Assembly (NCBI GenBank): GCA_036769565.1
Contig: DAIPKW010000002.1
Span: 9,727-73,726, forward strand
DNA from: Thermodesulfobacteriota bacterium
GTDB lineage: Bacteria; Desulfobacterota; BSN033; UBA1163
Direction of reading: 5' to 3'
Length of the DNA: 64,000 nucleotides
In this document: piece by piece, positions 541 through 51,240 of the stretch
How positions within the stretch are numbered: position 1 is the stretch's first letter
Layout of the letters: each line of letters starts with the position of its first letter
Made by a program: the position numbers and the translations under genes
Notes under the pieces: model-generated
The model's input: the letters and a program-made list of their open reading frames with translations, nothing else
Database searches by the model: none
What the model was told of the DNA's origin: nothing

Positions 541-2100
541 TCATTTGACATTCTTACTTTCTATTTCCGCTACCATTTTCGTTGGAGCTGAAAAATCTGC
601 TTTCATCTCCACTTTTGTCCTGAAGTCTTTCAGGAATTTCTCCACGCTTGCATCCATCTTGTTGAAGAAGAGCTTGGGGTAGATCCCCATAAGGAAGATC
701 AGGGCGACCATAGGAATGAGCGTGATGACCTCCCGCGCATTGAGGTCCTTTAAACCCTCGTTCTTCGGATTGTTAATCTTTCCGAACATCACCCGTTGAA
801 ACATCCAGAGCATATAGGCCGCACCCAGTATGACTCCGGTTGCCGCCAAAACACCATAGACGACATTGGATCGAAATGCTCCCAGGAGGATGAGAAACTC
901 TCCCACGAATCCATTCGTTCCTGGAAGTCCGATGGAGGAAAGGGTGACAATCATAAAGAAGGTGGCAAAGACCGGCATCACCTTTGAGATGCCTCCAAAA
1001 TCGGCGATCATCCGTGTGTGTCTCCGCTCATAGATCATTCCGACGATCAAGAAGAGCGATCCCGTGCTGATACCGTGGTTGAGCATTTGATAGATCGAAC
1101 CCTGAACGCCCTGTGTATTGAAGGCGAACATGCCTAACATGACGTAACCAAGATGGCTGACGCTCGAAAAGGCCACCAATCGTTTCAGGTCGGGTTGCAT
1201 CATCGAGACCAGCGCTCCGTAAATGATTCCAATGAGCGCCAATACAGAGATCAAAGGCATCAGTTCGAGAGCCGCATTCGGGAATAGCGGAATGGCAAAC
1301 CGGATGAATCCATAGGTTCCCATCTTGAGCAAGACGCCTGCCAGAATTACGCTTCCTGCAGTAGGCGCTTCGGTGTGGGCATCGGGCAACCAGGTATGGA
1401 ATGGAAACATTGGCACCTTGATCGCAAAGGCCAGTGCAAAGGCTCCAAAGAGCCAGTATTGAGTGCCCAAAGGAATCCCCAGCTTATAAAGCTCCATCAC
1501 ATCAAAGGTGGCCTTTCCAGTTGCCTTCGCATTGATGAAATAGAGCGCTAAAATGGCAACCAGCATGAGCACGCTTCCAGCCATGGTGAAGAGGAAGAAC
1601 TTAATCGCTGCATAGATCCGCCTTGCCGGATTGCCCCAAACTCCAATGAGAAGGTACATCGGGATGAGCATCACTTCCCAGAAGACATAGAAGAGTACAA
1701 GGTCCAGCGCCACCAGTGCCCCAACCATTCCTGTCTCGAGAAAGAGGAAAGAGATCATATACTCTTTCACGCGGAAGGTGATCGCTGTCCAAGAACAGAG
1801 GATGCAGAGCACGGTCAAAAAGGTCGTCAGAAGCACGAGCAGAAGACTGATCCCATCGATCCCGAGTTTATAACTGATGCCATAGGCCTCGACCCACCAC
1901 CAGTCCTCCATGAATTGCATGGCTGCCGAGGTGGAATCGAATTTAAAAAAGAGTGGCAGAGAAGCTATAAATTCAACCAGGGCAAATGCCAGAGTTACCC
2001 TTCGGATCGTCTCCTCTTTCTTAATGAAGAGAAGTAGGATTGCACCGACCAGAGGGAAGAAGATGAGAAAGGATAGAATGGGAATTCCCAAGATGTCCAT
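541..2100 (-). CDS. nuoM: NADH-quinone oxidoreductase subunit M
   Basis: Antiporter-like subunit with motifs [31 protein letters not shown] and HGISTGSLF. Start moved to ATG 2100 (AAGGAG upstream). Confidence 0.97.
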
Positions 2101-2210
2101 GGAATTAACTCCTTTTATTGAAACGACTATTGCGAATGACACCGAATAGGGCGAATGAGAAATTTATGAATATTCGTTTAATTCGTTCTCTTTCGTGTCA
2201 TTCGGGTTAT

Positions 2211-4193
2211 TTAAAAGAATCCCCGGATGATATAGTAGATGACCAGGATCAGCCCTCCCAAAACGATGGAAAAGGCATAATTCTGAACCAATCCTGTCTG
2301 CACCTTACGCATCACACCAGAGAGCCATCCGATCAAATAGGCAATTCCATTGACCGTTCCATCGATCACGAGATCATCGAAGCCCTTCCAGAGCCCCCTG
2401 CCAAGGTTTTTCAGAGAGTTGACAAAGAGCACCTGATAGAGTTCGTCCACATAATATTTATTCGAAACGAGTTGATAGAGCCCTCTCCATCTCTGCGCCA
2501 ACATCTTAGGCAAGGCCGGATTTTTCAAATATAAGAAGTAAGCGATCCCGATCCCAATCAGGGCGATCACCACGGAGACAGCCATGAGCAGAAGCTCCAA
2601 TGTCGCCGAGTGCTCTCCTCCAGCACCTGCTGCCCACGCCTCTTGGATCAGCGAAAAACTTGCATGGGCTTTGACAGGCGGCCCATTGCCTACCACAGGT
2701 GCTAAAAATTCATGGATGTGATTGGCACCTCCTAAGACATGGGGAACACCCACATACCCTCCCACGATGGAGAGGAAAGCCAGAACCATCAATGGGATTG
2801 TCATGATCTTTGGCGATTCATGGATATGGTGTGCCACATGATGGTCCACTCTTGATTCTCCAAAGAAGGCCATGAAGAGCGCCCGGAACATATAGAAGGC
2901 GGTCATGCCCGCAGCCACAGCAGCCACCAGCCAGAGCAGGAAATGGCCGCGTTGGCTGGAGAAGGCCATCCAGAGGATCTCATCCTTGCTGAAGAAGCCC
3001 GAAAGTCCGGGTATACCTGCAATCGCCAGGGTCGCAATGAAGAAGGTGACAAATGTGATGGGAATCTTCTTTCTCAATGCGCCCATCTTCCGAATATCGA
3101 GCTCGCCGCTGAGCGCATGCATCACGCTCCCGGCGCCAAGAAAGAGGAGGCCTTTGAAGAAGGCATGGGTCATCAGGTGAAAGATCCCTGCGGCGTAAGC
3201 TCCCACACCGACTGCCAGAAACATATAACCCAACTGACTGATCGTCGAATAGGCCAGGATCTTCTTGATGTCGTACTGACAGAAGCCTATTGAGGCCGTA
3301 AAGATGGCGGTGGCACAGCCGACGATGGCAACCACGGCCATGGCAATGGGCGCCATGTTATAAAGGATGCTGCAACGGGCAACCATGTAGACACCTGCTG
3401 TCACCATGGTGGCTGCATGGATCAGAGAGCTGACCGGTGTCGGACCCTCCATGGCATCGGGAAGCCAGACATAGAGAGGTATCTGTGCCGACTTTCCGCA
3501 GGCGCCGACAAAAAGCAGAAGCGCAATGGCCGTAGCGGTCGCCGTATCGAGTTTGCCGACATTGGCAAAGACCTCGGTAAAATCGAGCGTCCATATCCCA
3601 TGCTGCCCTAAAGAGGTGAAGAGGAGAAACATCCCCAAGATGAAACCGAAATCACCAACCCGGTTGACGACAAAGGCCTTCTTTCCTGCATTGGATGCAG
3701 AATCCTTCTCATACCAGAAGCCAATCAGAAGATAGGAGCAGAGCCCAACGCCTTCCCACCCCACAAACATCAATAAGAAGTTGTTGGCCAGGACGAGGTT
3801 GAGCATCATGAAGACGAAGAGATTGAGATAAGTGAAATACCGGGTATAACCCGGATCATCATGCATGTATCCTACGGAGTAGATGTGAATGAAGAAGCTG
3901 ACGCCAGTCACGACCAGGGCCATCAGGATGGAGAGGGGATCGATCTGATAACCGATCACGGTCTGAAAAGAACCAGAAACCACCCAGTCAAAGAGGACCT
4001 TTTCAAAGAGCCTTTCTCCAGGAGGTCTTTGGATCAGTTCAAAAAAGATGAGGATCGACGTGAGAAAGGAGAGTCCGATGGCCGAAGGGCCGACCACGCT
4101 GACCACACCCTTTCCCAGGCGCTTCCCTAAGAGCCCGTTGATCAAAAATCCGATAAATGGAAATAGAGGAATTAACCAAACATATTCAAGCAT
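2211..4193 (-). CDS. nuoL: NADH-quinone oxidoreductase subunit L
   Basis: Motifs GWEGVGLCSYLLIGFW, KSAQIPLYVWLPDAMEGPTPVSSLIHAATMV and HLMTHAFFK. Confidence 0.98.
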   Translation of the reverse strand: MLEYVWLIPLFPFIGFLINGLLGKRLGKGVVSVVGPSAIGLSFLTSILIFFELIQRPPGERLFEKVLFDWVVSGSFQTVIGYQIDPLSILMALVVTGVSFFIHIYSVGYMHDDPGYTRYFTYLNLFVFMMLNLVLANNFLLMFVGWEGVGLCSYLLIGFWYEKDSASNAGKKAFVVNRVGDFGFILGMFLLFTSLGQHGIWTLDFTEVFANVGKLDTATATAIALLLFVGACGKSAQIPLYVWLPDAMEGPTPVSSLIHAATMVTAGVYMVARCSILYNMAPIAMAVVAIVGCATAIFTASIGFCQYDIKKILAYSTISQLGYMFLAVGVGAYAAGIFHLMTHAFFKGLLFLGAGSVMHALSGELDIRKMGALRKKIPITFVTFFIATLAIAGIPGLSGFFSKDEILWMAFSSQRGHFLLWLVAAVAAGMTAFYMFRALFMAFFGESRVDHHVAHHIHESPKIMTIPLMVLAFLSIVGGYVGVPHVLGGANHIHEFLAPVVGNGPPVKAHASFSLIQEAWAAGAGGEHSATLELLLMAVSVVIALIGIGIAYFLYLKNPALPKMLAQRWRGLYQLVSNKYYVDELYQVLFVNSLKNLGRGLWKGFDDLVIDGTVNGIAYLIGWLSGVMRKVQTGLVQNYAFSIVLGGLILVIYYIIRGFF

Positions 4194-4213
4194 GTATTAC
4201 TCCTTTTTGCAGT

Positions 4214-4285
4214 TCGGTGTTCGGAGTTCGTAATTCGGAGTTTAAAAACTTATTTTCTCCGAACTCCGAACTCATGGCTCCGAAC
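4214..4285. repeat. Heptamer-periodic palindrome between nuoK and nuoL
   Basis: TTCGGTG-TTCGGAG-TTCGTAA-TTCGGAG versus CTCCGAA-CTCCGAA...CTCCGAA. Confidence 0.8.
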
Positions 4286-4290
4286 TATTT

Positions 4291-4608
4291 TTACCATTTC
4301 AGTAAATTGACTTCATCCACATTGATCGTCTCTCTGGAACGATAGAGCATGACAAAGATGGCCAACCCGACTGCCGCCTCTGCAGCAGCTACGGCCATAA
4401 CGAAGAAAGCAAAGATTACCCCGTCCACCGATTGGAGAAAACGGGAGAGCGTGATGAAGGTCAGATTGACCGCATTGAGCATCAACTCAATACACATAAA
4501 GACGACGATCGCATTGCGACGGGTTAGCGCTCCGATCACACCGATCGTGAAGAGTATCCCGCTTAACATGAGATAGAGGGCAGGGGGAATGGTTGGTACG
4601 ACCCACAT
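4291..4608 (-). CDS. nuoK: NADH-quinone oxidoreductase subunit K
   Basis: About 105 aa with [10 protein letters not shown] and [10 protein letters not shown] motifs. Confidence 0.97.
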
Positions 4609-4620
4609 ATTCAATTCTCC

Positions 4621-5148
4621 TTATGTCCTTTTCTTGCTTAAAATCACGGCGCCGATGATGGCGGCAACCAGAAGGATCGAGACGATCTCAAAAGGAAAGA
4701 GATAGGTTGTAAAAAGACTCTCGCCTACCGTCTTCACGTTGGTACCCATCTTTTCAGGCGTATAGGAACCGGTCTGGCCGGTCGGCGACTTTGCCACAGC
4801 TACATAGAGGAGGCCTATGAGGAAAAGGACCGCCAGAAATCCTCCGATCACCTTGGAATAGACGATCTTCAGTTTCGAGCGAAGCTCTGTCTCCAGATCG
4901 AGGAGCATGATGACGAAGACGATGAGCATCACAATGGCTCCTGCATAGACGATGACCTGGATGATGGCAATAAATGGGTTGTGAAGCAGGATATAGAGCA
5001 CAGCCACGCAGAGTAAGGTCAACACCATGAAGAGCGCGCTGTGAATCGGATTTTTTCGGGTGATGACCAGAATGGAGGCCACAATCGAGACAAAGGCCAT
5101 CCCCATAAAGAGCAACCACTGAAAGAGGATCCCAAAATTTTCAGCCAT
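4621..5148 (-). CDS. nuoJ: NADH-quinone oxidoreductase subunit J
   Basis: Motifs NPIHSALF, QVIVYAGAIVML and PFEIVSILL; operon position. Confidence 0.96.
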   Translation of the reverse strand: MAENFGILFQWLLFMGMAFVSIVASILVITRKNPIHSALFMVLTLLCVAVLYILLHNPFIAIIQVIVYAGAIVMLIVFVIMLLDLETELRSKLKIVYSKVIGGFLAVLFLIGLLYVAVAKSPTGQTGSYTPEKMGTNVKTVGESLFTTYLFPFEIVSILLVAAIIGAVILSKKRT

Positions 5149-5263
5149 AGTCTGACTCCAAATGATTTACTGAAATCCCCCTTTGTCTCCCTTTTACAAA
5201 GAAGGAATCCCGCAAGACGCTGGACTCCTCCCTTTAGCAAAGGGAGGCTGAGAGAGATTTGGT

Positions 5264-5677
5264 TTATGGATTATACTTCTTCTGATCTAACAGCTTCTCC
5301 GTGTTCATGAGAAAGGGTGCCCTTTCCCGAGCCACCCATTCATAATTCTTTCCCACAAAGATGGCATTGACTGGACAGGCCTCTTCACAATACCCGCAGA
5401 AGATGCACCTCAAGGCGTCCAGCTCATAGGTGAGGGGATAACGTCTTCCCTGTTCATTCTCTGCCGTCACAATCGAGATACACTGGGAAGGGCAGACCGC
5501 CATGCAGAGGCCACAGGCCACACACTTCAGCTGGCCCTTCTCATCCTTTTCAAAATACTGGATCCCCCTCCAGCGTTTTGCAGGAGGCACCTTCTGCTCG
5601 GGATACTGAATGGTAATCGGCCTGGAGAAGAACCGACCCAAAGTAAATGCCAAACCTTTAAGTAGTGGGACGATCAT
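5264..5677 (-). CDS. nuoI: NADH-quinone oxidoreductase subunit I (2x[4Fe-4S])
   Basis: TIQYPE motif and two ferredoxin motifs, CVACGLCMAVCP and CIFCGYCEEACP. Confidence 0.97.
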   Translation of the reverse strand: MIVPLLKGLAFTLGRFFSRPITIQYPEQKVPPAKRWRGIQYFEKDEKGQLKCVACGLCMAVCPSQCISIVTAENEQGRRYPLTYELDALRCIFCGYCEEACPVNAIFVGKNYEWVARERAPFLMNTEKLLDQKKYNP

Positions 5678-5755
5678 GTTTAACCCCTTCCTTTAACACT
5701 TCAATGAACGCTTACATATGAATTGCATGAAGAATCTTCTTATTCAAAGCAATTC

Positions 5756-6775
5756 CTATCCCTTCAATGAGACGACCAGCGCGGTGATTAAAAGATTGAT
5801 CAGCGCCAGCGGAAAGAGAATCTTCCACCCAAACTTCATAATCTGATCGTACCGCAACCTCGGAAAGGTCCCTCTCTGCCAGATGAAGAAGAAGCAGAAG
5901 ATGAAGAGCTTACCGCAGAACCAGACGATCCCTGGAATAAAATCGAGCTGTGGCAGAGGAGCCTGCCATCCACCCCAGAAGAGCGTTACGGCCACCGCAC
6001 CCATGGTGATCATATGGGCATATTCCGCCATGAAGAAGAGAGCAAACTTCATACTGCTATATTCGATATTAAACCCGCAGGCAAGCTCCGATTCGGACTC
6101 CGGCATATCAAATGGAGTCCGGTTGATCTCTGCGAGACCACAGATGATGTAGAGAATGAAAGCGACAGGTTGATACCAGATGTTCCAGTTCCAGAACCCG
6201 CCAGCCTGCTGGTTGATGATGTCCGTCAGCCTCAGGCTCTGCGAGAGAATAATCACACCGATAATGGTGATCCCAAGCGCCACCTCGTAACTGATCATCT
6301 GAGCGGCTGCACGAAGGGAACCGGTCAGCCCATACTTATTGCCTGAAGACCAGCCTCCGAGCACAATTCCAAATTCCCCCAGTGAGGCAACCCCGAAGAT
6401 ATAGAGAAGCCCAATATCGACATCTGCAATCCGGAGTTTGACCACCCAATCGGTTCCCGGAATTTTAAACTCATTTCCAAAGGGGATGACTGCAAAGAGG
6501 GCAATGGCCGAGATGATGGCAATCATCGGTGAAAGAACAAAGACTGCTTTGTCTGCCTTACCAGGAACCAGATCTTCTTTGAAAAAAGCCTTAATGCCAT
6601 CCGAGAAGGGCTGAAGGAGTCCAAACGGACCACACCGATTGGGACCAAAACGGATCTGGATGTGGCCCAAGACCTTCCGCTCTAACCAGGTCAGATAGGC
6701 CACGGAGAGCATCAGACACGCAAAGACCACCACACACTTTACAATCGCCTCAATGAGAAGGTATAAGACCTGCAT
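5756..6775 (-). CDS. nuoH: NADH-quinone oxidoreductase subunit H
   Basis: Motifs ERKVLGHIQIRFGPNR, GLLQPFSDGIK, NRTPFDMPESESEL and FPRLRYDQ. Confidence 0.98.
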   Translation of the reverse strand: MQVLYLLIEAIVKCVVVFACLMLSVAYLTWLERKVLGHIQIRFGPNRCGPFGLLQPFSDGIKAFFKEDLVPGKADKAVFVLSPMIAIISAIALFAVIPFGNEFKIPGTDWVVKLRIADVDIGLLYIFGVASLGEFGIVLGGWSSGNKYGLTGSLRAAAQMISYEVALGITIIGVIILSQSLRLTDIINQQAGGFWNWNIWYQPVAFILYIICGLAEINRTPFDMPESESELACGFNIEYSSMKFALFFMAEYAHMITMGAVAVTLFWGGWQAPLPQLDFIPGIVWFCGKLFIFCFFFIWQRGTFPRLRYDQIMKFGWKILFPLALINLLITALVVSLKG

Positions 6776-7025: not shown

Positions 7026-8978
7026 TTATACCGCAAACAACCCAACCCGAACGCACCTGAGACAGCGTTCTGCCTCCTTCTGTGCAACCGGGATAGGAAA
7101 TCCCTTCTCCACTTCGTCAAAAGTCCACTTTCTCGAATCGGGAGGAAGCATCTCCAGCATGGCCCGTTTCCTTCCGCCAGGAACACCGATCCTCTCATCT
7201 CTATTGTAGACCTTGATCTTCTCCATCAGTGTCTCCAGACGTTCCTCCTCCGACTCTCTGACTTCCACCCCTCTGAGAAACGCATCAATTTTATCAGCCG
7301 CCCTTCTTCCGTGGGCCGCGGCGCGAACAAGGACATCCGGTCCAATCACACAATCGCCTCCGGAGAAAATCCCTTCTCGGTTCGTCTGGAAGGTTCCCTC
7401 TTTTACAGAGATCGTGGAACGTTTGGTCGTCTTCACTCCGTCTTTCTCATCAAGAAAGGAGAGGTCGATCGCCTGGCCAATGGCAGGGATGACGATATCC
7501 GCTTCGATGAAGAATTCCGATCCTTTGATCGGAACTGGTCTTCGCCTTCCGCTCTCGTCTGGTTCGCCGAGCTCCATCCGGATACATTCCATCCCGACCA
7601 CTTTTCCATCCTTCTCGACGATCCGTACTGGATTGCAGAGGTAGTGAAACTTCACGCCCTCCTCTTCGGCGTCGTGGATCTCCACCCGGTCCGCAGGCAT
7701 CTCCTTCTTCGTCCGGCGATAGACCAGGTTCACATCGGGCTTGCCAATTCGGAAGGACGAACGAACACAGTCAATGGCCACATTGCCTCCACCCACAACC
7801 ACCACCCTCTTTCCCTCGGGGTAGGGATCTCTTCCAAGATTGATTTCAAGGAGGTAGTAGACCCCTGGGATAAATCCTTTATATCCCTTGTCCTCTCCCT
7901 CCACACCCATGGGCGTATTGGTCTGGGCACCCACAGCAATATAGATGGCTTTAAAACCCTGCTCGAACATCTGGGAAAGGGTTATATCCTTTCCCACCTG
8001 CGTGTTATATCGGATCTCAACCCCAAGCTGTTGAACCAGACCGGCCTCGTATCTCAATATCTCTCTCGGAAGCCTGTAGTCTGGAATTCCAACAGCAGCC
8101 ATGCCTCCGGGCTCGCCCAATCTCTCAAAAATCGTGACAGAGTAACCCTTCAAAGCCAGATAATAGGCACAGGTCAGCCCAGAGGGTCCAGCTCCGATGA
8201 TCGCTACCTTTTCAGAACGGGCAGAGGTTTTAACCAGGTCGGGTTTGATCTCTCTTTCCAGTTCATAATCTGCCACAAATCGCTTGAGCCATTTGATGGA
8301 GACGCATTCGTCCACATTCTGACGTCTGCAATTGTCCTCACAGGGCCGAATGCAGACCCTTCCAAGCACACCTGCCAAACAGGTCGCCTCCCGTATGGTT
8401 GAAAGAGCCTCCAGATACCTGCCTTCCTTGATCAGCTCCACATAGTGGGTAATCGGAAGGTGGGAAGGACAGGCGCTCTCACAGGGAGCGGTTACCTTCA
8501 CTTTGTACTCTTCACGCGGAATCCTCTTCTTGGACTGAATCGCTTCGATGAACTCTTCCCTGAAATATGCGATGGCATGGAGCACAGGCTTGGGTCCGGT
8601 CTGTCCAAGGTTACATTTCGAACTCCTTAAGATCATCTCGCCTAAGAACTTCAGCTGTTCCAGATCCCCCGCTCTTCCTTCTCCTCCCGCAATCCGGTTG
8701 AGAATCGATGACATAATTTGAGTTCCTACCCGACAGGGGGTGCACTTCCCGCACGATTCCTTCTGGACGGCTTCCATATAGGCACGAATCAGGTCAACGA
8801 TATTGACTTCAGGATCCCGAACGGCAATCCCGTCCCAACCGATGAAGGCCTTGATCTTCTTCTCCTGATCGAATTCAAGGGGAAGATTGAGATTGGAGAT
8901 GGACTGTCTCTCTCCTTCGGGTTTCCCCCGATTATCCACAATTGCCCCACCCCAACTGCTAAAAAGGATATCTGTCAT
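7026..8978 (-). CDS. SfrB/GltD-like FAD and Fe-S NAD(P)H oxidoreductase with an N-terminal NuoF-type [4Fe-4S] motif
   Basis: Starts MTDILFSSWGGAIVDNR...FIGWDG, which resembles Geobacter SfrB as I recall it. Contains SCGKCTPCR...KCNLGQ, GltD-type APCESACP/GRVCIRPCEDNCRR, FAD motif IGAGPSG and NAD(P)H motif VVGGGNVAID. Confidence 0.85.
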   Translation of the reverse strand: MTDILFSSWGGAIVDNRGKPEGERQSISNLNLPLEFDQEKKIKAFIGWDGIAVRDPEVNIVDLIRAYMEAVQKESCGKCTPCRVGTQIMSSILNRIAGGEGRAGDLEQLKFLGEMILRSSKCNLGQTGPKPVLHAIAYFREEFIEAIQSKKRIPREEYKVKVTAPCESACPSHLPITHYVELIKEGRYLEALSTIREATCLAGVLGRVCIRPCEDNCRRQNVDECVSIKWLKRFVADYELEREIKPDLVKTSARSEKVAIIGAGPSGLTCAYYLALKGYSVTIFERLGEPGGMAAVGIPDYRLPREILRYEAGLVQQLGVEIRYNTQVGKDITLSQMFEQGFKAIYIAVGAQTNTPMGVEGEDKGYKGFIPGVYYLLEINLGRDPYPEGKRVVVVGGGNVAIDCVRSSFRIGKPDVNLVYRRTKKEMPADRVEIHDAEEEGVKFHYLCNPVRIVEKDGKVVGMECIRMELGEPDESGRRRPVPIKGSEFFIEADIVIPAIGQAIDLSFLDEKDGVKTTKRSTISVKEGTFQTNREGIFSGGDCVIGPDVLVRAAAHGRRAADKIDAFLRGVEVRESEEERLETLMEKIKVYNRDERIGVPGGRKRAMLEMLPPDSRKWTFDEVEKGFPIPVAQKEAERCLRCVRVGLFAV

Positions 8979-8989
8979 GTTAACCCTCA

Positions 8990-9153
8990 TTTTCGAAAAT
9001 CCGAAATCCGAATATCGGGCGTAGCGTCCTCTTAGGACCAATCCGAAACAAATTTTTAAATTCAAATCACCAAAATTTTTAAGATTCTCTTTCGTTTTGA
9101 ATTTCGAAAATTTGAAATTGTTTCGACATTCGAATCTCGTGCTTCGAATTTAT
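8990..9153. repeat. Heptamer-periodic palindromic element, family C, between nuoD and the sfrB-like gene
   Basis: TTCGAAAATCCGAAATCCGAATATC... on the left and ...TTTCGACATTCGAATCTCGTGCTTCGAATTT on the right. Confidence 0.75.
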
Positions 9154-9158
9154 TCTTT

Positions 9159-10331
9159 TTACCGATCGATCTCACCCAACACAATATCAATACTTCCGAT
9201 GGTGGCGATGACATCGGCAATCAGACTTCCCTCAATCATCTTGGGAAGCGCGCTTAAGTTGAGGAAAGAGGGAGGTCGGATTCTCATCCTCAAAGGTTTA
9301 TTCGAACCATCGCTCACAAGATAGAAACCCAATTCCCCTTTGGCAGCTTCGACACTTGCATAGACTTCCCCTTTGGGTGGCTGGAACCCTTCGGATGCAA
9401 TCTTGAATTGCCGAATCAAAGAGGCGATATCGGTCAGGACCATCTCTTTGGGAGGCAGAACCACCCTGGGATCATCAGCGAGAATCGGGCCTTTGGGCAA
9501 ACGGTCCAGGGCCTGTCTCACAATGGCATTTGACCACTCCATCTCCCTCAACCGGACATAGTACCGATCGTAGACATCGCCTACTGTCCCTGTGGGAATG
9601 TCGAATTCGAAATCCTCATAACTCGAATAGGGAAAAACTTTCCTCACATCCCACTTTACTCCGGATCCACGAAGCGTCGGCCCGGTCACACCCCAATTGA
9701 TGGCATCTTCTTTCGAAATGATTCCCACTTCCTTGGTCCGTTTCAACCAGATCACATTCTTTGTCAGAAGCGTCTCATACTCCTTCATGTGGCCTGGAAA
9801 GGCGTCAACAAAATCCTTGATCTTTTTGTCGATCCCTTCTGGAAGGTCTTTAGCAACCCCTCCGATTCTCAAATAGGTTGGGGTCAATCTTCCGCCGGCC
9901 ACCTCTTCGAAGATCCTGAGAATATCCTCCCTTTCACGGAAATTATAGAAGAGCAGGGTCATTGCGCCGATGTCGAGCGCATGGGTTCCAAGCCAGATGA
10001 GATGTGCCGCAAGCCTCTGGAGTTCAGCCATCATCACTCTCAGGTATTGAGCCCGTTTCGGGACCTCAATGCCAAGAAGTTTTTCAACGGCCAGGACATA
10101 GGCCAGGTTATTCCCCATCGCATTGGTGTAATCTAACCGATCCGTGAGGGGAATGACCTGATGATAGGTTCTGGACTCAGCTAATTTCTCAACCCCCCGA
10201 TGGAGGTGTCCGATGTGGGGAGTTGCTTTAACAATAATTTCTCCATCCAGTTCCAATACAAGCCTCAACACCCCATGTGTGGCCGGGTGCTGGGGACCCA
10301 TATTGATGGTCATGAATCGTGTCTCTGCCAT
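9159..10331 (-). CDS. nuoD: NADH-quinone oxidoreductase subunit D
   Basis: NMGPQHPATHGVLRL, DRLDY and C-terminal DIVLGEIDR. No [NiFe]-binding CxxC pairs. Confidence 0.98.
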   Translation of the reverse strand: MAETRFMTINMGPQHPATHGVLRLVLELDGEIIVKATPHIGHLHRGVEKLAESRTYHQVIPLTDRLDYTNAMGNNLAYVLAVEKLLGIEVPKRAQYLRVMMAELQRLAAHLIWLGTHALDIGAMTLLFYNFREREDILRIFEEVAGGRLTPTYLRIGGVAKDLPEGIDKKIKDFVDAFPGHMKEYETLLTKNVIWLKRTKEVGIISKEDAINWGVTGPTLRGSGVKWDVRKVFPYSSYEDFEFDIPTGTVGDVYDRYYVRLREMEWSNAIVRQALDRLPKGPILADDPRVVLPPKEMVLTDIASLIRQFKIASEGFQPPKGEVYASVEAAKGELGFYLVSDGSNKPLRMRIRPPSFLNLSALPKMIEGSLIADVIATIGSIDIVLGEIDR

Positions 10332-10332
10332 T

Positions 10333-10821
10333 TCAGACCTCGGGGACAAAAGGTTTGTCAAAATCCGGTCCTTCGACCGGGAAATCTTTCCTCAGGGGGT
10401 GTCCTTCATAACCATCCCAGAGGAGGATTCTCCTCAAATCGGGATGATTCTCAAAGGTGATTCCATAAAGATCGTAAACCTCCCTCTCAAGCCAGTTCGC
10501 TGCCTTCCAGATCGATTCGACACTGGGCATCGACTCGCCCTCTCCGATCTTCGTCTTCAATCTCAATCGACTGTTCGATTTGAAGGAGTAGAGGAGATAG
10601 ACCACTTCAAATCGGGGTACCTGTGGGAAATAGTCAACCCCGCAGAGATCGGTCAACATATGGTACTGGAGATCGGGTTCCGCATAGAGAAATCGACAAA
10701 TCTCAAAGAGATCCTTCTTCGGTACCGTAATATTGACTTCACCCCGAAAGGTTGTCACCTCCAAGATCGAAGCGGGAAATTTTGCTTCCAACTTTTTAAC
10801 TGCTGGATGAACTTCTGCCAT
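10333..10821 (-). CDS. nuoC: NADH-quinone oxidoreductase subunit C
   Basis: ANWLEREVYDLYGITFENHPDLRRILL...GHPLRKDFP. Confidence 0.98.
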   Translation of the reverse strand: MAEVHPAVKKLEAKFPASILEVTTFRGEVNITVPKKDLFEICRFLYAEPDLQYHMLTDLCGVDYFPQVPRFEVVYLLYSFKSNSRLRLKTKIGEGESMPSVESIWKAANWLEREVYDLYGITFENHPDLRRILLWDGYEGHPLRKDFPVEGPDFDKPFVPEV

Positions 10822-10822
10822 A

Positions 10823-11344
10823 TCAATCTATCCTTTCCACAATCTCTTCTGGGATCAGCCGAACATTCTTTCGATCGGCAAGGGTTTCTGTCTCAATCTT
10901 CTTCTGGAGTTCAACGATTGCTGTAAGGAGTGTCTCTGGCCTCGGCGGACAGCCCGGTACATAGACATCTACTGGAATCATCTGATCCACACCCTGAACC
11001 ACATTGTAGGTCTTAAAAATTCCTCCTGAACAGGCGCAGGCCCCATAGGCAATGACCCACTTGGGTTCTGGCATCTGTTCATAGATGCGTTTGACCATGG
11101 GCGCCATCTTCTTGGTCAGGGTGCCTGCCACAATCATCAGATCTGCCTGCCGTGGAGATGGCCTGAAGACCTCGGAACCAAATCGCGAAATATCCCACGT
11201 CGCCGAACTGGTGACGATCATCTCCAGCGCGCATCAGGCAAGACCGAAGGTGACCGGCCAGATCGAATACTTTCGGCCCCAGTTGACCACTTTATCCAGT
11301 ACAGGCATCAAGGGGGTTTTTTCAAGGTAGGTTTCTATTCCCAT
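10823..11344 (-). CDS. nuoB: NADH-quinone oxidoreductase subunit B, with an in-frame TGA (putative selenocysteine) at 11234-11236
   Basis: The track ORFs 11234..11455 and 10823..11221 are in one frame: ...TGG CCG GTC ACC TTC GGT CTT GCC TGA TGC GCG CTG GAG ATG = [13 protein letters not shown], matching the NuoB GLxCCxxEM motif. Downstream motifs [14 protein letters not shown] and PGCPPRPE are intact. Reads 173 aa from ATG 11344. Confidence 0.93.
11198..11216 (-). promoter_or_regulatory. Putative bacterial SECIS hairpin of nuoB
   Basis: Minus-strand CGUCACC-AGUUC-GGCGACG gives 6 pairs plus one A.C mismatch. The loop starts 24 nt after the UGA and has G at position 2 followed by U, which fits the bacterial SECIS model. 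Confidence 0.6.
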
Positions 11345-11691
11345 TCGAGTGCTCCTTTTTTCCAAATATAGATATAGGCAATGATCAAAATCCCAATAAA
11401 TACGGCCATCGAAACAAAGCCAAACATCTTCAAATCTTTGAAGATGACGGCCCATGGATAGAGAAAGACGATTTCAATATCGAAGATCAGAAAGAGCAAG
11501 GCAATGATATAGTATTTGATCGGGATCCTCCGAAAGGAAGAACCATAGGTCGTCATGCCACACTCGTAAGGTGCCTCTTTAAGCAGTGTCTGCTTTCTCT
11601 GGCCTAAGAGATAAGAGGCGAGAATGGCAAAGCAGGCAAAGATGACGGCTATGGCAAAATAGAAAAGGATGGGAAGATAATCCATTAACAT
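11335..11691 (-). CDS. nuoA: NADH-quinone oxidoreductase subunit A
   Basis: PYECG, KYYIIALLFLIFDIEIVFLYPWAV and WKKGALEW. Confidence 0.98.
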   Translation of the reverse strand: MLMDYLPILFYFAIAVIFACFAILASYLLGQRKQTLLKEAPYECGMTTYGSSFRRIPIKYYIIALLFLIFDIEIVFLYPWAVIFKDLKMFGFVSMAVFIGILIIAYIYIWKKGALEWE

Positions 11692-11739
11692 GATGATACC
11701 CTCTTATGAAAATTTTTTTGTGCCCTGTCGACCTATAAA

Positions 11740-11769: not shown

Positions 11770-11779
11770 CCTCTTCGTA

Positions 11780-14452
11780 CTATCCCCCATATTTCTCAAC
11801 CCGCACGGTTGAATATTTAAGATCCGGGATCTTCGACTCTGGATCAAGCACCGTATTCGTAAGAAGATTGACCGGTGCCTCGCTAAAGTGAAACTTTGCA
11901 AAGACCACACCTCTTCCAACCCTATCGGTAACCTTCGCTTTTGAAATGAAATCGCCTCTACGGCTGACCACCCTTATCCGATCACCCTCTTTGATTCCAA
12001 GTTGGGTTGCATCGGATGGGTTTATTTCCACGAGGCTTTCAGGAGACATCTCGTTGAGAAGTCTGACTTTACGGGTCATACTGCCCGCATGATAATGGTA
12101 GTAGTCCCGACCTGTGCTTAAGATGAACGGATACTCCTGATCCGGAACCTCGGGTGGAGGAGTGAAATCCACCGGAACAAAGAGCCCTTTTCCTCGAACG
12201 ATTTTGCCTCTATGAAGGATCGGTGTTCCGGGATGATCCTCCGTTGGGCACGGCCACTGCAGGCCACCAGATTCCAATCTGGCATAGGTGATGCCTGCGT
12301 ACTGAGGCGTGACTTTCCGAATCTCTTCGAAGATGGCTTCAGGACCTTCATAATCCATGGAGTAACCCAATCTCCTCGAGATTTCAGAGATGATCTTCCA
12401 ATCTGGCATCGCTCCTTTCGGTCCCTCGACAACCTTTCTCACCCTTTGAACCCTTCTCTCAGTGTTCACAAAGGTTCCGTCCTTCTCGAGGAAGCAGAGA
12501 GAGGGCAAGACAACGTGGGCCATCTGTCCGGTCTCTGTTAAAAAGATGTCCTGGACCACAAGAAGTTCCAGCCCAGCATAGGCCTTCTTAAGATGGGATA
12601 GGTCAGGATCTGTTACCATGGGATTTTCGCCCATGATGTAGAGGGCTTTGATCTTTCCATCCAGGGCCGCCTTGCTCATCTCCACGACCGTCAAACCCGG
12701 CTTTCCTGAAAGAGAGACACCCCATTGGCTTTCGAATTTATCCTGCAACTCTCTTACGGCCACGCTCTGATATCCAGGATAGACCGTGGGCAGACAACCC
12801 ATGTCACAGGCGCCCTGGACATTGTTCTGACCTCTCAGTGGGTTGACACCACTTCCGGGTCTTCCCACCTGACCGCAGAGAAGGGCCAGATTGGAAATCG
12901 CCTTTACCCCATCTGTTCCAGAAGAGTGTTGGGTAATGCCCATGCAGTAAAGAATGGCCGCATTTTTAGCGGAACCATATATCCGAGCGGCCTTAATCAA
13001 CTTCTCTTTGGGAATGCCGGTCACTTGTTCCACAAACTCTGGCGTATACCGGGCGACCTTCTCTTTGACCGCTTCAAAGCCTTCTGTATTCTGTTCGATA
13101 AAGGATTTATTATAAAGGTTTTCTCTGATGATGATGTGGGCCAACCCATTTAACCAGGCAATATCATCTCCAGGCTTGGGTTGAAGCCAGAGGGTGGCTT
13201 CCTCAACCAGATCGATCTTTCTCGGATCAACGACAATGATCTTCGCCCCATTGAAACGGGAACGATGCCTCAAGAGCATCCCGATGACCGGATGGGTCTC
13301 TGTGGTGTTGCTCCCGGTAACCAACAAGACATCGGCCTGCTGAAAATCAGCAAGAGAATTGGTCATGGCTCCAGAGCCGAGGGTGGTGGCCAGACCGACC
13401 ACTGTACTGGAGTGTCAGAGACGGGCGCAATGGTCGATATTGTTCGTGCCGATGGCCGCCCTGATCAACTTCTGGAAGAGATAGTTCTCCTCGCATGTGG
13501 CGCGCGCCGAGGCGAGGCCAGCAATACTGTCAGGTCCATACTTCTCTTTAATGGCCTTGAGTTTGTCAGAGACAAAGCTTAAAGCTTCGTCCCAGCTCAC
13601 CTCTCGGAATGAGCCATTTTCTCGGATCAGAGGCATGTGAAGTCGATCTGGGCTGTTCACAAATTCAAATCCGAACCGTCCTTTCACGCAGAGCACGCCG
13701 TTATTGGTTCCGAGCCCTTCTTTGGTGGTAATCTTAAACACCCGGTTACCTACCGCGTTCACTTCCAGGGAACAACCCACTCCGCAATAGCCGCATACTG
13801 TGGTCACCCTTTTAGCCTGCCACTTCCTTCCTTTGATGGGGCTCACATTTTCAGTCAACGCTCCCACAGGACAGGCTGCGAGACATTCGCCGCAGGAGAT
13901 ACATCGTTCGGGTTTGATCGGCTCAACTCTGGCATTAAAACCGGTTCCCTGAAGATCGAGGACTTCTCTGCCAGCAATCTCTCGGCAGGCACGGATACAA
14001 CGGCTGCAGAGGATGCAGCGATTGGGATGGTACTTGATCGCAGGTGTGGAATAGGTCTTGTACTCTTTGGCAGGTGTCTCCACCTGATACTCGGCTTTTT
14101 GAATCCCATACTCATAAACATAATCCTGAAGATCGCATTCACCACCTTTATCACAGACCGGGCAATCAAGAGGGTGATTTACCAGCATGAACTGGAGGAC
14201 TTCTCTTCGAATCTCCCGAATCTTCGGGGTGTCGGTTTCGATCACCATGCCATCTGTGGCTGGAGTGTTACAAGCAGTGACAGGGTTTTCGAGATCTTTA
14301 ACCTCAACCACACACATCCTGCAGAAACCTGTGGGAATAAGGCTCTCCATGTGGCACAGCGTTGGTATTCGGAAACCGTTCTGCTGAGCAATGCTCAGTA
14401 TTGTAGCTCCCTCCTCCGCCTCAATAGCTCTGCCATTGATTGTAACTCTCAT
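11780..14452 (-). CDS. fdhA: Selenocysteine-containing formate dehydrogenase alpha subunit (Mo/W-bisPGD) with a NuoG-type Fe-S N-terminus
   Basis: The track ORFs 13415..14452 and 11780..13402 join in frame through TGA at 13415-13417: DHCARL-U-HSSTVVGLATT. N-terminal motifs IPTLCH/GFCRMC, HPLDCPVCDKGGECDLQ, CILCSRC, CISCGEC and CGYCGVGC; also LRGQNNVQG. Confidence 0.95.
13386..13402 (-). promoter_or_regulatory. SECIS hairpin of fdhA
   Basis: Minus-strand GUGGUC-GGUCU-GGCCAC, a 6-bp stem with a G-starting loop 18 nt after the UGA. Confidence 0.75.
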
Positions 14453-30850: not shown

Positions 30851-30873
30851 TGAAATTTAAAAAATCAGTCAAT

Positions 30874-45174: not shown

Positions 45175-45978
45175 TTATAACCATCTTTTACGCCGTTTAT
45201 AAGCCTTCACATCCTTGTAGGATTTTAAGGCTCCCGAACTTGCCGTTCCAAGATAGAACTCTTTGACGTCGGGATTCTCTCTTAAACGAGCAGCCTCATC
45301 CTCCATCATGATCTTGCCGTTCTCCATCACATATCCATAATGAGCGATCTGAAGGGCCATGTTGGCATTCTGCTCCACCAACATGATCGTTGTTCCCTGC
45401 TCTTCATTGATCCGCTTCACAATCTCAAAGATCTCTCTCACCAAAAAGGGGGCTAAGCCCAAGGATGGTTCATCCAGAAGCAGCAGTTTGGGCTGTGCCA
45501 TCAGGGCACGCCCCATCACGAGCATTTGCAACTCTCCACCGCTACAATAACCTGCCAGTCGGTTTTTACGAGCCACCAGAGGCTGGAAGTAATGGTAGAC
45601 CAGTTCTAAATCCTTCTTGTAGGGTTTGCCCCAACGGGTGGCTGTCCCAACCCGGAGATTCTCTTCAACGGTGAGCAGCTTAAAGGGCTGGCGTCCCTCC
45701 ATCACTTGGATGATCCCGAGTCTTGTGATCTGTTCTGGAGATGAGTTGTGAATGTTGTGCCCTTCATAAACGATGTTACCCTCGGTCACCTTGCCATTCT
45801 CCGGTTTAAGAAGCCCGGAGATCGCTTTGAGGGTTGTCGTCTTTCCAGCGCCATTGCTGCCAAGAAGCGAAACGATCTGTTTTTTCTTGACGACGAGCGA
45901 AACCCCTTTGAGGACTTGAATTACATCAGAATAAACCACACTGATATTATTGAGTTGGAGCAGGATATTGTCTTCCAT
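45175..45978 (-). CDS. livF: Branched-chain-type ABC transporter ATP-binding protein
   Basis: LGSNGAGKTT, CSGGELQML, LDEPSLGLAP and VEQNA. Confidence 0.9.
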   Translation of the reverse strand: MEDNILLQLNNISVVYSDVIQVLKGVSLVVKKKQIVSLLGSNGAGKTTTLKAISGLLKPENGKVTEGNIVYEGHNIHNSSPEQITRLGIIQVMEGRQPFKLLTVEENLRVGTATRWGKPYKKDLELVYHYFQPLVARKNRLAGYCSGGELQMLVMGRALMAQPKLLLLDEPSLGLAPFLVREIFEIVKRINEEQGTTIMLVEQNANMALQIAHYGYVMENGKIMMEDEAARLRENPDVKEFYLGTASSGALKSYKDVKAYKRRKRWL

Positions 45979-45986
45979 AAGTTACC

Positions 45987-47057
45987 TCAATAAGAAAAAG
46001 GCCAGAGCCTGAAACTGGCACGAATGATCCGCCATACCTCTGCCAATCCCCTCGGCTCAAAAATGATAAAGAGCACAATCGCCAGCCCAAAAATGAATTC
46101 ACGAAGCGGTGCAATCGTCAGGGCCACCCCTGCAAGGGCAGGCAGGTTCATAAAATATTCCGATGCAAGACTCAATATCTCATTGAGCGAGGTGATGAAA
46201 ATGGCTCCAAAGACACTGCCGGTAAGGCTTCCCAGACCGCCGATGATGATCATGGCGATAAATTCGACAGAGAGAAAGAGCGTAAAGGGGTCTGGGGTAA
46301 TGCTCGCTAAATAGTGCGTCCAGAGCGCTCCTGCAAATCCAGCATAAAAGGAACTGATGGCGAAAGCCAACAGTTTGTAATGAAAGATGGGAATGCCCAT
46401 GCCCTCGGCAGCCCGATCATTGTCACGGATGGCCACGAAGGCCCTCCCATATCGTGTTCGAAGAAGGTTCTTTGCAATCCATAGCATCACCACCAAGGAT
46501 ATGAAAACGATATAGAAAAAAGCAAAATCACTTTTGAGACTTAAACCAAACAGGCTTGCCCTTGAAAGGATGATCCCCTGCAGCCCACCAGTGAGGCTTT
46601 CCCATTGGACGAAGATGAATTGAATGATGAACTGACCTGCAAGTGTAGCAATGGTCAGATAGAGGTGTTTGAGCCTTGCTGAAGGAAGGCCAAAAACCAG
46701 ACCCACGGCGGCGGTCATAATCCCCGCCGAGAGAAGGGAGAGAGGAAAAGGAAAACCGAGTTTGGTCGAAAGGATGGCCGCGGTATAACCTCCCACTCCA
46801 AAGAAGGCTCCGTGACCAAGTGAGATCTGCCCGGTAAATCCGATCAGAAGGTTAAGACCCACGGCTGCAATGGCAAAGATTCCAATGTGATTGATCACGT
46901 AAAGGAGATACGAACTACTGATCCAAGGAATCACAACAAACAGGATCACAAGCCCGATCAACATGGAGACTCGGCCGAAATCGGTCTCAAAAATCGTTAG
47001 CTCCTCATCGTATCTCTCTTTATAGTTTCCACAGGGATGCAATCGCAGTTTTTTCAT
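45987..47057 (-). CDS. livM: Branched-chain-type ABC transporter permease
   Basis: GLNLLIGFTGQISLGHGAF, GRAFVAIRDN and IIGGLGSL. Confidence 0.9.
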   Translation of the reverse strand: MKKLRLHPCGNYKERYDEELTIFETDFGRVSMLIGLVILFVVIPWISSSYLLYVINHIGIFAIAAVGLNLLIGFTGQISLGHGAFFGVGGYTAAILSTKLGFPFPLSLLSAGIMTAAVGLVFGLPSARLKHLYLTIATLAGQFIIQFIFVQWESLTGGLQGIILSRASLFGLSLKSDFAFFYIVFISLVVMLWIAKNLLRTRYGRAFVAIRDNDRAAEGMGIPIFHYKLLAFAISSFYAGFAGALWTHYLASITPDPFTLFLSVEFIAMIIIGGLGSLTGSVFGAIFITSLNEILSLASEYFMNLPALAGVALTIAPLREFIFGLAIVLFIIFEPRGLAEVWRIIRASFRLWPFSY

Positions 47058-47127
47058 TCCGCCTCCAAACTCATCACAATGAACTTTTTGTTTACCGTTC
47101 TTCGTTTAACGTTTATCGTTTTTTCAA

Positions 47128-48006
47128 TTACACTCGCTCAATTTCTACCAGGCCAAAGAGTCCATAAGGTTTCACCAAAAGGATGAAGACCAGGATAATG
47201 TAAGGTACGACCTCTCGAAGGGAGGTTGAAATATATCCTCCTGTAAAGGTCTCTAAGACACCGATAATGATTCCTCCGATGATGGCCCCGCCAATGCTTT
47301 CCAACCCTCCGAGGATGACCACCGGAAAGACCTTGAGGCCAATGATGCTGATGCTATGCACATTGACACCGCTGATGATCCCCAGGATAATGCCGCTCAT
47401 TGCACAGACCAAGGCCGCAATGGCCCAGGACAGGGCAAAGACTCTCCTGACATGAACACCAAGCGAGAGGGCAGCGGTCTGATTGTCTGCCACGGACCGC
47501 ATATAGATGCCCTGGGAGGAGTATTTGAAGAAAAGTCCGAATAACAGAAGAAAGATGATGCTGATGACAAACGAGGCCACATAGACCGGTGCAATGTTAA
47601 TGTTTCCTATTCGAACGGAGATATCCTCTGGAAGGAAGGTGGGGTAGGCAAATAAATTGCCTCCAAAGATAAAGAGCAGTAGTCCCTTGAACATGGCTGC
47701 CAGCCCAACCGTGAGCATGATGACCATGATCAGGGCCTCTCCGATCAGGGGGCGCAGGAAAAGGCGCTCAATGATAAATCCCAGGACAAAACATCCGATC
47801 AGGGTCAGGAAAAAAGCAATGAGAAAAGGGATCTTCGCCCAGGCCGCCAGCACCAGAAAGAGAAATGCCCCAATGGCCAAAAGATCTCCGTGGGCAAAGT
47901 TGAGGACACTCGAGGACTTAAAGATCATCACGAAGCCCAGAGCTGCAAGGGCATAAAGAAAGCCTACGGATAACCCTTGAATCAAGAGCTGAAGAAAGAA
48001 ATCCAT
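47128..48006 (-). CDS. livH: Branched-chain-type ABC transporter permease
   Basis: YALAALGF, VLNFAHG and VILGGLES. Confidence 0.9.
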   Translation of the reverse strand: MDFFLQLLIQGLSVGFLYALAALGFVMIFKSSSVLNFAHGDLLAIGAFLFLVLAAWAKIPFLIAFFLTLIGCFVLGFIIERLFLRPLIGEALIMVIMLTVGLAAMFKGLLLFIFGGNLFAYPTFLPEDISVRIGNINIAPVYVASFVISIIFLLLFGLFFKYSSQGIYMRSVADNQTAALSLGVHVRRVFALSWAIAALVCAMSGIILGIISGVNVHSISIIGLKVFPVVILGGLESIGGAIIGGIIIGVLETFTGGYISTSLREVVPYIILVFILLVKPYGLFGLVEIERV

Positions 48007-48084
48007 AGATATCAATCCTCCTCTCGCTTTATAACACTATCGCTTTTACGAGAAAATCATTTTCTTCGATAAATTCATCTCAAT

Positions 48085-48218
48085 ATATCTAAATTCCAAT
48101 CACCAAATTCCAAACAAATTCCAATCATCCAATAACAAAAGAACCTATTCCCAAATCATATTTGAAAATTTGGTTATTGATGTTTGGTGATTATTTGATA
48201 ATTGGAATTTGGGTATTT
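48085..48218. repeat. Heptamer-periodic palindromic element, family B (copy 1)
   Basis: The left arm AAATTCCAATCACCAAATTCCAA... is complementary to the right arm ...TTGGTGATT...TTGGAATTT. Shares AAATTCCAATCACCAA and CCAATAACAAAA with 56598-56770. Confidence 0.8.
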
Positions 48219-48225
48219 ACAGCTC

Positions 48226-50172: not shown

Positions 50173-50189
50173 ATGCCCATGACTCCATA

Positions 50190-50285
50190 TTGGAATAATG
50201 GAACGATGGAAGAATGGAATATTGAGCTTCCTTATCAAATGAATGATTTTTATTGATCCATTATTCCACTATTCCATTATTCCAT
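50190..50285. repeat. Periodic palindromic element (GGAATAAT type)
   Basis: TGGAATAATGGAACGATGGAAGAATGGAATATT versus CCATTATTCCACTATTCCATTATTCCA. Confidence 0.8.
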
Positions 50286-51113: not shown

Positions 51114-51154
51114 GGTTCACCTTCTCAGATCTATATAGAATGGCCTTTAGTGCT

Positions 51155-51202
51155 CCTCTTTCCCCCTGCGTCAATCCGTTTCAGACACAGGGGGAAAGAG
51201 GC
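51155..51202 (-). terminator. Long GC-rich hairpin after the substrate-binding protein gene (terminator or mRNA-stabilising stem)
   Basis: CCTCTTTTCCCCCTGCGTC...GACACAGGGGGAAAGAGG. Confidence 0.65.
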
Positions 51203-51240
51203 AAAGGATTTTAAACTTTCAACTCAAATGGAAACCACAA

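Follow-up and report, generated by a model that had tools for sequence, protein, structure and literature searches.

A probable selenocysteine codon at a cluster N2 ligand position of the complex I subunit NuoB

In complex I, electrons reach quinone directly from cluster N2, the last of its carriers. In the stretch of Thermodesulfobacteriota DNA analysed here (64,000 nucleotides of contig DAIPKW010000002.1, referred to below as the window), the nuoB gene carries an in-frame UGA, codon 37, exactly where a cysteine ligand of this cluster is expected. The question raised by the locus is whether UGA37 ends translation, is misread by another tRNA, marks a damaged gene, or is decoded as selenocysteine (Sec). 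The comparisons presented below make the decoding of UGA37 as Sec very likely, and it is concluded with high confidence that nuoB encodes a predicted selenoprotein with Sec at codon 37.

The UGA codon and the ligands of cluster N2

The initial annotation had described nuoB as intact except for one in-frame TGA at the first cysteine of the tandem-cysteine motif, and both the translation and the alignment to known structures agree with this description. The reading frame, whose product begins with MGIETYLEK, contains only one internal TGA, codon 37, in the context FGLA-TGA-CALEM. When cysteine is put for the internal stop, the product matches PF01058 with 107.8 bits (cut-off 27). The NCBIfam models NF005012 and TIGR01957 match it with 242 bits (cut-off 116) and 234 bits (cut-off 142.7), respectively, and the match of PDB chain 2FUG_6 has E = 3e-65; bacterial NuoB proteins whose structure or sequence is known are 60-68% identical to the window protein. 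The placement of the TGA at an N2-ligating tandem cysteine is likewise borne out by the alignment with Thermus thermophilus Nqo6 (2FUG/4HEA chain 6) and Escherichia coli NuoB (7AWT chain B), in which all four N2 ligand positions of the window protein are occupied, one of them by a Sec codon instead of a cysteine codon (Table 1). The tandem cysteine pair of N2 is unusual and strained, its first cysteine (C85 in Y. lipolytica) is the more mobile one and adjoins the quinone-ligating tyrosine, and ligation by adjacent cysteines has been linked to the high, pH-dependent potential of the cluster and to the coupling mechanism (PMC8042128). The window protein shares with canonical NuoB/Nqo6/NDUFS7 (2FUG/4HEA chain 6, 7AWT chain B) the PF01058 domain, the position in the operon and the four ligand positions, including the adjacent pair; it differs from them in the UGA at the first tandem cysteine, followed by a hairpin of the selenocysteine insertion sequence (SECIS) type, and in an extra cysteine, Cys105. 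This additional residue (11030-11032) lies two residues past the ligand Cys103 (GACACSGG). Its counterpart is also present in Nitrospirota-like clades (GSCACSGG/GSCACTGG) and in the cysteine-containing twins of the window's clade, but not in T. thermophilus Nqo6 (GACASSGG) or in those eukaryote-type sequences that were read (GSCANGGG).

The codon was followed in related sequences, each GTDB species being represented by one genome. The four NuoB loci most similar to the window protein are 95, 93, 92 and 88% identical to it; three of them have TGA at this codon (L001, L003 and L004), and the locus of 93% identity (L002) has TGT. A cysteine codon (TGC or TGT) occupies the position in 77 genome loci, L002 and 76 others, and the cysteine is invariant in all 77. 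Orthologues of both kinds, with TGA in the three genomes and in metagenomes and with cysteine in the 77 loci, thus exist side by side, and the cysteine twins of Sec-NuoB are 92-95% identical to their Sec counterparts. Metagenome contigs were scanned with the degenerate pattern G-L-A-TGA-C-A-x-E-M, in which TGA stands at the first tandem cysteine position. At least 120 contigs matched, and about 118 of those listed translate as genuine NuoB or NDUFS7 on both sides of the TGA; the matches listed contain at least 111 distinct 60-nt downstream sequences, and the Sec forms come from at least four clades. The exact nuoB of the window, including its TGA, is present in contigs of two Joint Genome Institute (JGI) samples, one of these contigs differing from the window elsewhere, which supports the claim that the TGA is real and not a sequencing slip. 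Moreover, in comparisons with L001, L003, L004 and L088 the ratio of nonsynonymous to synonymous substitution (dN/dS) is 0.02-0.15 in the 36-codon segment 5' of the TGA and 0.03-0.04 in the 125-codon segment 3' of it, while the dS values lie between 0.4 and saturation. Purifying selection therefore acts in one frame on both sides of the TGA, which argues against a pseudogene and against a discarded leader peptide. A lone internal stop typically marks a pseudogene, and standard annotation would flag nuoB for this reason; nevertheless, with the identical TGA found in two independently assembled samples, kept across lineages with saturated synonymous sites and recurring in about 118 of the listed contigs, from at least four clades, and with the remainder of the complex I operon intact, the probability that nuoB is a pseudogene, or that its TGA is an error of sequencing or assembly, is practically negligible.

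As the initial annotation had anticipated, the gene is mishandled by standard procedures, and gene callers split nuoB into 36 and 132 residues. In public gene calls (loci L201 and L202) Sec-NuoB appears as a protein of 132-135 aa plus an orphan open reading frame of 36 aa, and fdhA, the first gene of the same operon, as 345 plus 540 aa. Sec forms are stored as truncated 132-135-aa entries named 'NADH-quinone oxidoreductase subunit B' (P0053, P0094, P0100, P0107, P0108, P0112 and P0119).

The hairpin downstream of UGA37

The UGA is followed by the hairpin CGUCACC-AGUUC-GGCGACG, whose loop begins 24 nt past the UGA and has G and U at its second and third positions; the sequence, the spacing and the loop GU given in the initial annotation were all recovered. 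The comparison of related sequences shows selection on this hairpin at the RNA level, confined to forms with TGA at the codon. The normalised synonymous-codon entropy of the window's clade (clade A) was calculated from 55 distinct sequences among the matches listed. It has a gene mean of 0.74 +/- 0.21 and values of 0.48, 0.16, 0.00, 0.00 and 0.32 at codons +7 to +11, and the lowest 6-codon window of the gene (0.16) falls on the hairpin stretch. No dip was found in 12 close cysteine relatives (0.68, rank 40/115) or in the eukaryote-type Sec forms (rank 110/115). In an alignment of 46 sequences the seven-pair helix is paired in 91.6% of the cells and its covariation score is reached by 0 of 500 shuffles, so the check on stem covariation came out in favour of the hairpin; registers slid by 1-3 columns pair at 15-54%. 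The first pair (27-45) occurs as GC in 27 sequences, CG in 13, UA in 2, UG in 2 and AU in 1, and the fourth as CG in 28, UG in 12 and UA in 6. Out of seven positions, 6.18 are paired in Sec forms versus 4.08 in close cysteine relatives (p = 9e-6). In the cysteine twin L002 three pairs of the hairpin are lost, every change being synonymous, and the energy of the segment is -2.9 kcal/mol versus -7.2 to -14.4 kcal/mol in Sec forms, where the relatives of the window reach -10 to -14.4 kcal/mol. In line with the initial annotation, whose sequence-level predictions all came out in favour, L001, L003 and L004 keep both the TGA and the hairpin, as do over 50 distinct metagenome sequences of clade A. 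A further constraint was seen just 5' of the UGA, in the Ala36 codon GCC (11237-11239), whose synonymous variation is 0.19 in the window's clade and 0.36-0.38 in others, compared with 0.81 in distant cysteine forms; the variation is thus suppressed in Sec forms, and this may be a codon-context effect on recoding.

The properties of the single hairpin were compared with the consensus model of bacterial SECIS (bSECIS) elements, which has an apical loop of 3-9 nt, an upper stem of 4-16 bp, G at loop position 1 or 2, usually followed by G or U, a distance of 16-37 nt from the UGA to the apical loop, and a minimum free energy of -7.5 kcal/mol or lower (PMC13188914 Fig. 2A). The window hairpin fits this model in the size of its loop (5 nt) and stem (seven positions with six pairs, relatives having 6-8 perfect pairs), in the position of the loop G (AGUUC, the loops of other clades being AGUAU, CGGGA, GGA, AGGU and GUA) and in its spacing. 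In a 60-nt context the minimum-energy fold is a structure other than the hairpin. Two possible measures were tried and set aside. The minimum free energy of nt 11-48 past the codon does not discriminate between Sec and Cys forms (means -9.40 and -9.45, Mann-Whitney p = 0.85), and a loose hairpin rule (at least 6 bp, one defect tolerated, G in the loop, loop start at 19-37), satisfied by 100% of the Sec forms, is also satisfied by 75% of the Cys forms and is too permissive as evidence.

Several observations weigh against the decoding of UGA37 as Sec. The fifth stem pair of the window hairpin is an A.C mismatch (11212 with 11202), so that six of the seven positions pair and the seven full pairs first described do not stand. 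Nor does the fold of this sequence alone exceed chance, the segment having -7.2 kcal/mol versus -7.43 +/- 2.17 kcal/mol in shuffles (z = 0.11). Set against the bSECIS limit of -7.5 kcal/mol, the same value (ensemble -7.65 kcal/mol) is marginal, the segment scored in the model being unspecified. The Rfam SECIS families gave no match at nuoB at the gathering score or at E <= 10. The cysteine homologues L009 and L014 can still form a similar hairpin, because the codons of V-A-S-S-A-T are inherently palindromic, a property that probably made the site easy to convert. Finally, none of selA, selB, selC and selD was found within the 64-kb window, nor was any tRNA found there.

The evidence from selection bears directly on the simplest alternative, termination at UGA37. 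The products would then be a 36-residue peptide and a 132-residue protein re-initiated at Met42, or the truncated product alone, perhaps as part of a selenium-independent regulation. Exactly such reading frames of 36 and 132 aa are the output of gene callers, truncated entries of 132 aa are common in databases, and an ATG is indeed found five codons past UGA37. This ATG, however, has no usable Shine-Dalgarno spacing, since GGAG directly abuts it, and a protein started at Met42 loses both tandem cysteines and with them the four-ligand binding of N2. Residues 38-41 (CALE) and the 36 N-terminal codons are, moreover, under strong in-frame purifying selection, and the hairpin has the spacing and loop traits of a SECIS and decays where the codon is TGT. 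Termination is, in view of these features, an extremely improbable explanation.

Recoded NuoB and NDUFS7 in other lineages

The metagenome matches form several clades, and each bacterial clade has its own hairpin at a nearly equal distance from the UGA. Examples are UGACGA-CGGGA-UCGUCA, GGCUGCU-GGA-AGCAGCC, GGCUUG-CGGGU-CAAGCC and GGCGGCCG-GUA-CGGC(U)CGCU. For the largest clade other than that of the window, metagenome-assembled genomes (MAGs) of Nitrospirae and Thermodesulfovibrionales are the nearest relatives with a name, and the Nitrospirota-like Sec loci include L084, L090, L098, L102, L136, L139, L143, L144, L149, L151, L154 and L155. In the Nitrospirota-like loci with UGACGA-CGGGA-UCGUCA the entropy over the hairpin is 0.06 versus 0.61 gene-wide, and in each of three Nitrospirota-like sub-clades the entropy minimum of the gene lies directly past the UGA (0.06, 0.15 and 0.34); the hairpin energy of the Nitrospirota clade B1 is -6.5 kcal/mol. 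Two of the Nitrospirota-like operons (L151 and L098) have the canonical nuoA-N arrangement with nuoEFG, the order nuoA-M being complete, and others consist of nuoABCDHIJKLM without EFG. The input modules of Sec-NuoB operons differ, and Sec at N2 therefore goes with more than one kind of input module. A third bacterial clade is represented by L082, L160 and L170, high-GC contigs with the motifs MMAVGTARFDISRFG and GVCTIAGGPF, and it is this clade that has the hairpin with the GUA loop and a bulged U.

The scan also recovered a group of eukaryotic nuclear NDUFS7 (PSST) genes with TGA at the first tandem cysteine and the signature CAVEMMH...GSCANGGGYYHYSY. The group comprises loci L085, L087, L094, L113, L116, L127, L135, L137, L140, L157, L159, L165, L172, L191 and L194, together with L081, L097, L145 and L175, which have apparent introns. 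Their N-termini resemble mitochondrial presequences, their closest named relative is the haptophyte Diacronema lutheri (82% identity), and a cysteine twin, P0242, is 95% identical. No conserved hairpin was found past the UGA of the eukaryotic forms. A pattern-and-fold scan detected SECIS-like elements of the AUGA..AA..GA type 45-300 nt past the stop codon in 11 of 15 eukaryotic loci, with a density of 12 per 4,449 nt of 3' region versus 1 per 12,497 nt of control. One of the elements, in L172, is independently matched by Rfam SECIS_1 (34.9 bits versus a gathering score of 35, E = 0.0033). The L172 transcript has two such elements in tandem past the stop codon, at 711-767 and 833-884, the second being the one matched by Rfam.

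The recoding is thus wider than the initial annotation had claimed, as it also occurs in Nitrospirota-like complex I and in eukaryotic NDUFS7. Some marine algae may have a mitochondrial complex I that is a selenoenzyme. It seems likely, if less than certain, that complex I is a natural selenoenzyme, with Sec at the first tandem ligand of N2, in several unrelated lineages, namely Syntrophales-like Desulfobacterota, Thermodesulfovibrionia-like Nitrospirota, the third, high-GC clade of bacteria and, in their mitochondria, haptophyte-like marine eukaryotes, and that SECIS elements apparently evolved independently in each.

Operon context, decoding of UGA and known selenoproteins

The decoding capacity of the organism can be judged from the operon itself, whose order is fdhA, nuoA-B-C-D, a NuoF/GltD-like fusion and nuoH-I-J-K-L-M, with nuoB between nuoA and nuoC/D (Table 1). 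The FdhA/FdhF family is the most widespread bacterial selenoprotein. The initial annotation had assigned a UGA and a SECIS element to fdhA; the UGA was found inside CARL-U-HS, and the SECIS is represented by a weak match of Rfam SECIS_3 at exactly this site (13362-13420, minus strand; 21.3 bits, E = 0.15, below the gathering score) and by a hairpin fold. The presence of the fdhA Sec site in the same operon speaks indirectly for the decoding of Sec by the organism. In a scan of the window, in-frame TGAs embedded in a conserved motif were found in nuoB and fdhA only. TGA also serves as the stop codon of 11 of the 47 window genes, including nuoB itself, and UGA is therefore not reassigned in this organism.

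These data are relevant to the possibility that UGA37 is read by a near-cognate tRNA (Trp, Cys or Arg), or that UGA is reassigned, so that the inserted residue is not Sec. Low-level read-through of UGA is known in bacteria, and the sel genes were not seen in the 64-kb window. Reassignment is contradicted by the ordinary use of TGA as a stop. As regards near-cognate read-through, the position of codon 37 is an invariant cysteine in 77 of 77 Cys-type homologues, a conserved hairpin with G/U in the apical loop is a signal for Sec and not a generic read-through signal, the classic Sec site of fdhA lies in the same operon, and the eukaryotic counterparts have SECIS-like elements past the stop codon. 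A residue other than Sec at this position is thus considered very improbable.

In the preferred reading, the decoding of UGA37 as Sec, the hairpin 17-39 nt downstream of the codon would act as a bacterial SECIS and recruit SelB with Sec-tRNA(Sec), and selenocysteine would be inserted in place of termination. The full-length NuoB of 173 residues would then bind the [4Fe-4S] cluster N2 through Sec37, Cys38, Cys103 and Cys132, and one of the four ligands of N2, the first of the strained tandem pair adjoining the quinone pocket, would be a selenolate. From the sequence data we infer that Sec is actually inserted and that selenium ligates N2. The consequences for the cluster are a matter of speculation, drawn from general chemistry. 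Selenium might shift the potential of N2 or its pH dependence (redox-Bohr effect) through the lower pKa of the selenol, it might relieve the strain of the tandem pair through longer C-Se and Fe-Se bonds, or it might protect the most mobile ligand from oxidative loss.

Table 1. Positions of the nuoB features and of the complex I operon in the window, with the corresponding residues of T. thermophilus Nqo6 and E. coli NuoB.
Feature	Coordinates	Strand	Corresponding residues	Basis
nuoB coding sequence, 173 codons plus stop, predicted Sec (U) at codon 37	11344..10823	minus		translation
nuoB own stop codon, TGA	10825..10823	minus
In-frame UGA, codon 37, first tandem Cys position	11236..11234	minus	Nqo6 Cys45; NuoB Cys63	translation and alignment to structures
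Cys38, second tandem cysteine	11231..11233	minus	Nqo6 Cys46; NuoB Cys64	structure alignment
Cys103, N2 ligand	11036..11038	minus	Nqo6 Cys111; NuoB Cys129	structure alignment
Cys132, N2 ligand	10949..10951	minus	Nqo6 Cys140; NuoB Cys158	structure alignment
SECIS-type hairpin	11216..11198	minus		fold of segment beyond a ribosome positioned on the UGA
Hairpin 5' arm	11216..11210	minus
Hairpin loop AGUUC	11209..11205	minus
Hairpin 3' arm	11204..11198	minus
fdhA, formate dehydrogenase alpha subunit, NuoG-like N-terminus, first operon gene	14452..11780	minus
In-frame UGA of fdhA	13417..13415	minus
nuoA, overlaps the nuoB start by 10 nt	11335..11691	minus		PF00507
nuoC	10821..10333	minus		PF00329
nuoD	10361..9159	minus		PF00346; TIGR01962, 570 bits
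Flavoprotein, 679 aa, NuoF C-terminal [4Fe-4S] domain fused to a GltD-like domain; start codon uncertain	7026..9065	minus		PF10589, PF14691, PF07992
nuoH, I, J, K, L, M (membrane arm)	541..6775	minus		Pfam

NuoD and NuoB together form the pocket for quinone and N2. The NuoF/GltD-like flavoprotein occupies the place usual for nuoE/F/G, between nuoD and nuoH, and it is kept in clade-A operons; no nuoE, nuoF or nuoG was found in the complex I operon of the window (541-14452, minus strand). In the sister lineages L088, L096, L121, L193 and L200, the GltD-like gene is separated from nuoH by an FdhA/NuoG-like gene. Compared with canonical complex I, the operon thus has FdhA and a GltD-like flavoprotein in place of NuoEFG, and the predicted enzyme is not a standard NADH dehydrogenase, since the Sec-containing FdhA and the NuoF/GltD-like flavoprotein replace that module. 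Gene content suggests a link of formate or NAD(P)H with the (mena)quinone pool as its probable function, possibly operating in reverse. Related MAGs carry the labels Syntrophales or Deltaproteobacteria.

Other parts of the window contain further genes of metabolic interest. A second cluster on the minus strand (25647-31383) encodes a NuoE-like protein of 169 aa, a NuoF-like protein of 620 aa and an FdhA/NuoG-like protein of 981 aa without an in-frame TGA, and probably specifies an NAD-linked formate dehydrogenase of the soluble type or some enzyme related to it. Two genes for BcrAD/BadFG-type ATPases and two for HGD-D-type dehydratases/reductases (37997-45105, minus strand) adjoin AMP-dependent ligases and would fit a syntrophic anaerobe that has a benzoyl-CoA or 2-hydroxyacyl-CoA pathway. 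The Rfam nhaA-I riboswitch matches at 52874-52932 (minus strand; 40.2 bits versus a gathering score of 37), 5' of an operon (52446..45175) that begins with a periplasmic binding protein and contains genes of an ABC transporter of the branched-chain amino-acid type, not a cation transporter.

The predicted Sec-NuoB resembles several known selenoproteins and is identical with none of them. As in FdhA/FdhF, the UGA would be recoded by a hairpin lying directly downstream within the coding sequence, Sec would be a metal ligand, and orthologues with cysteine exist. In contrast, the Sec of FdhA is catalytic and ligates the Mo/W of the pterin cofactor, whereas that of NuoB would ligate an iron of an electron-transferring [4Fe-4S] cluster, and the hairpin sequences of fdhA and nuoB are unrelated. 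Another parallel is offered by the [NiFeSe] hydrogenases (FrhA, VhuA/VhuU), relatives of the Q-module of complex I, whose large subunit is the counterpart of NuoD and whose small subunit (PF01058) is that of NuoB; the NCBIfam search also gave weak FrhG/VhuG matches of the window NuoB. Sec replaces a metal-ligating cysteine there as well, but in these hydrogenases it is found in the large subunit, on nickel, while here it lies in the homologue of the small subunit and would ligate N2, the equivalent of the proximal cluster. Among other selenoproteins with Sec in place of cysteine in an iron-sulfur motif, some have adjacent C/U residues, but none is a subunit of respiratory complex I and none is common to eukaryotic mitochondria, and the UC pair of NuoB is the N2 tandem motif. 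The only catalogued selenoprotein bearing the name 'NADH:ubiquinone oxidoreductase' is NqrE of the Na+-NQR, which is sodium-pumping, belongs to another Pfam family and is unrelated to complex I.

The initial annotation did not count NuoB among the commonly listed bacterial selenoprotein families. In agreement with this, a catalogue from May 2026, which covers 119 families of prokaryotic selenoproteins, has no NuoB or PF01058 entry, and NCBIfam release 20 has no selenoprotein-specific NuoB model. No mention of Sec-NuoB was found in a 2022 review, the Global Ocean Sampling (GOS) study, the BSepDB paper or the algal selenoproteome paper. Sec in NuoB, NDUFS7 or the cluster N2 subunit was not found described in the searchable full-text literature, although reports outside it are possible. 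As far as the searched sources show, Sec-NuoB would be an undescribed selenoprotein family.

If the decoding proposed here is true, N2 would be the first iron-sulfur cluster of a respiratory complex to have a selenolate ligand, and the repeated gain of Sec at one and the same residue would imply that it brings a specific functional advantage where N2 meets quinone. Sec at N2 would offer a site-specific spectroscopic handle, through 77Se hyperfine coupling and Se K-edge extended X-ray absorption fine structure (EXAFS), without mutagenesis, and the Sec/Cys twins with 92-95% identity would constitute a natural experiment on the role of the first tandem cysteine. Since the gene is systematically mis-annotated, metabolic reconstructions may score complex I as broken or incomplete. 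The combination of a Sec-containing formate dehydrogenase with a GltD-like input module in the window is relevant to the route by which formate is connected to the quinone pool in syntrophs. With Sec at N2, respiratory energy conservation would be tied to the supply of selenium in syntrophic anaerobes, in Nitrospirota and, apparently, in abundant marine algae.

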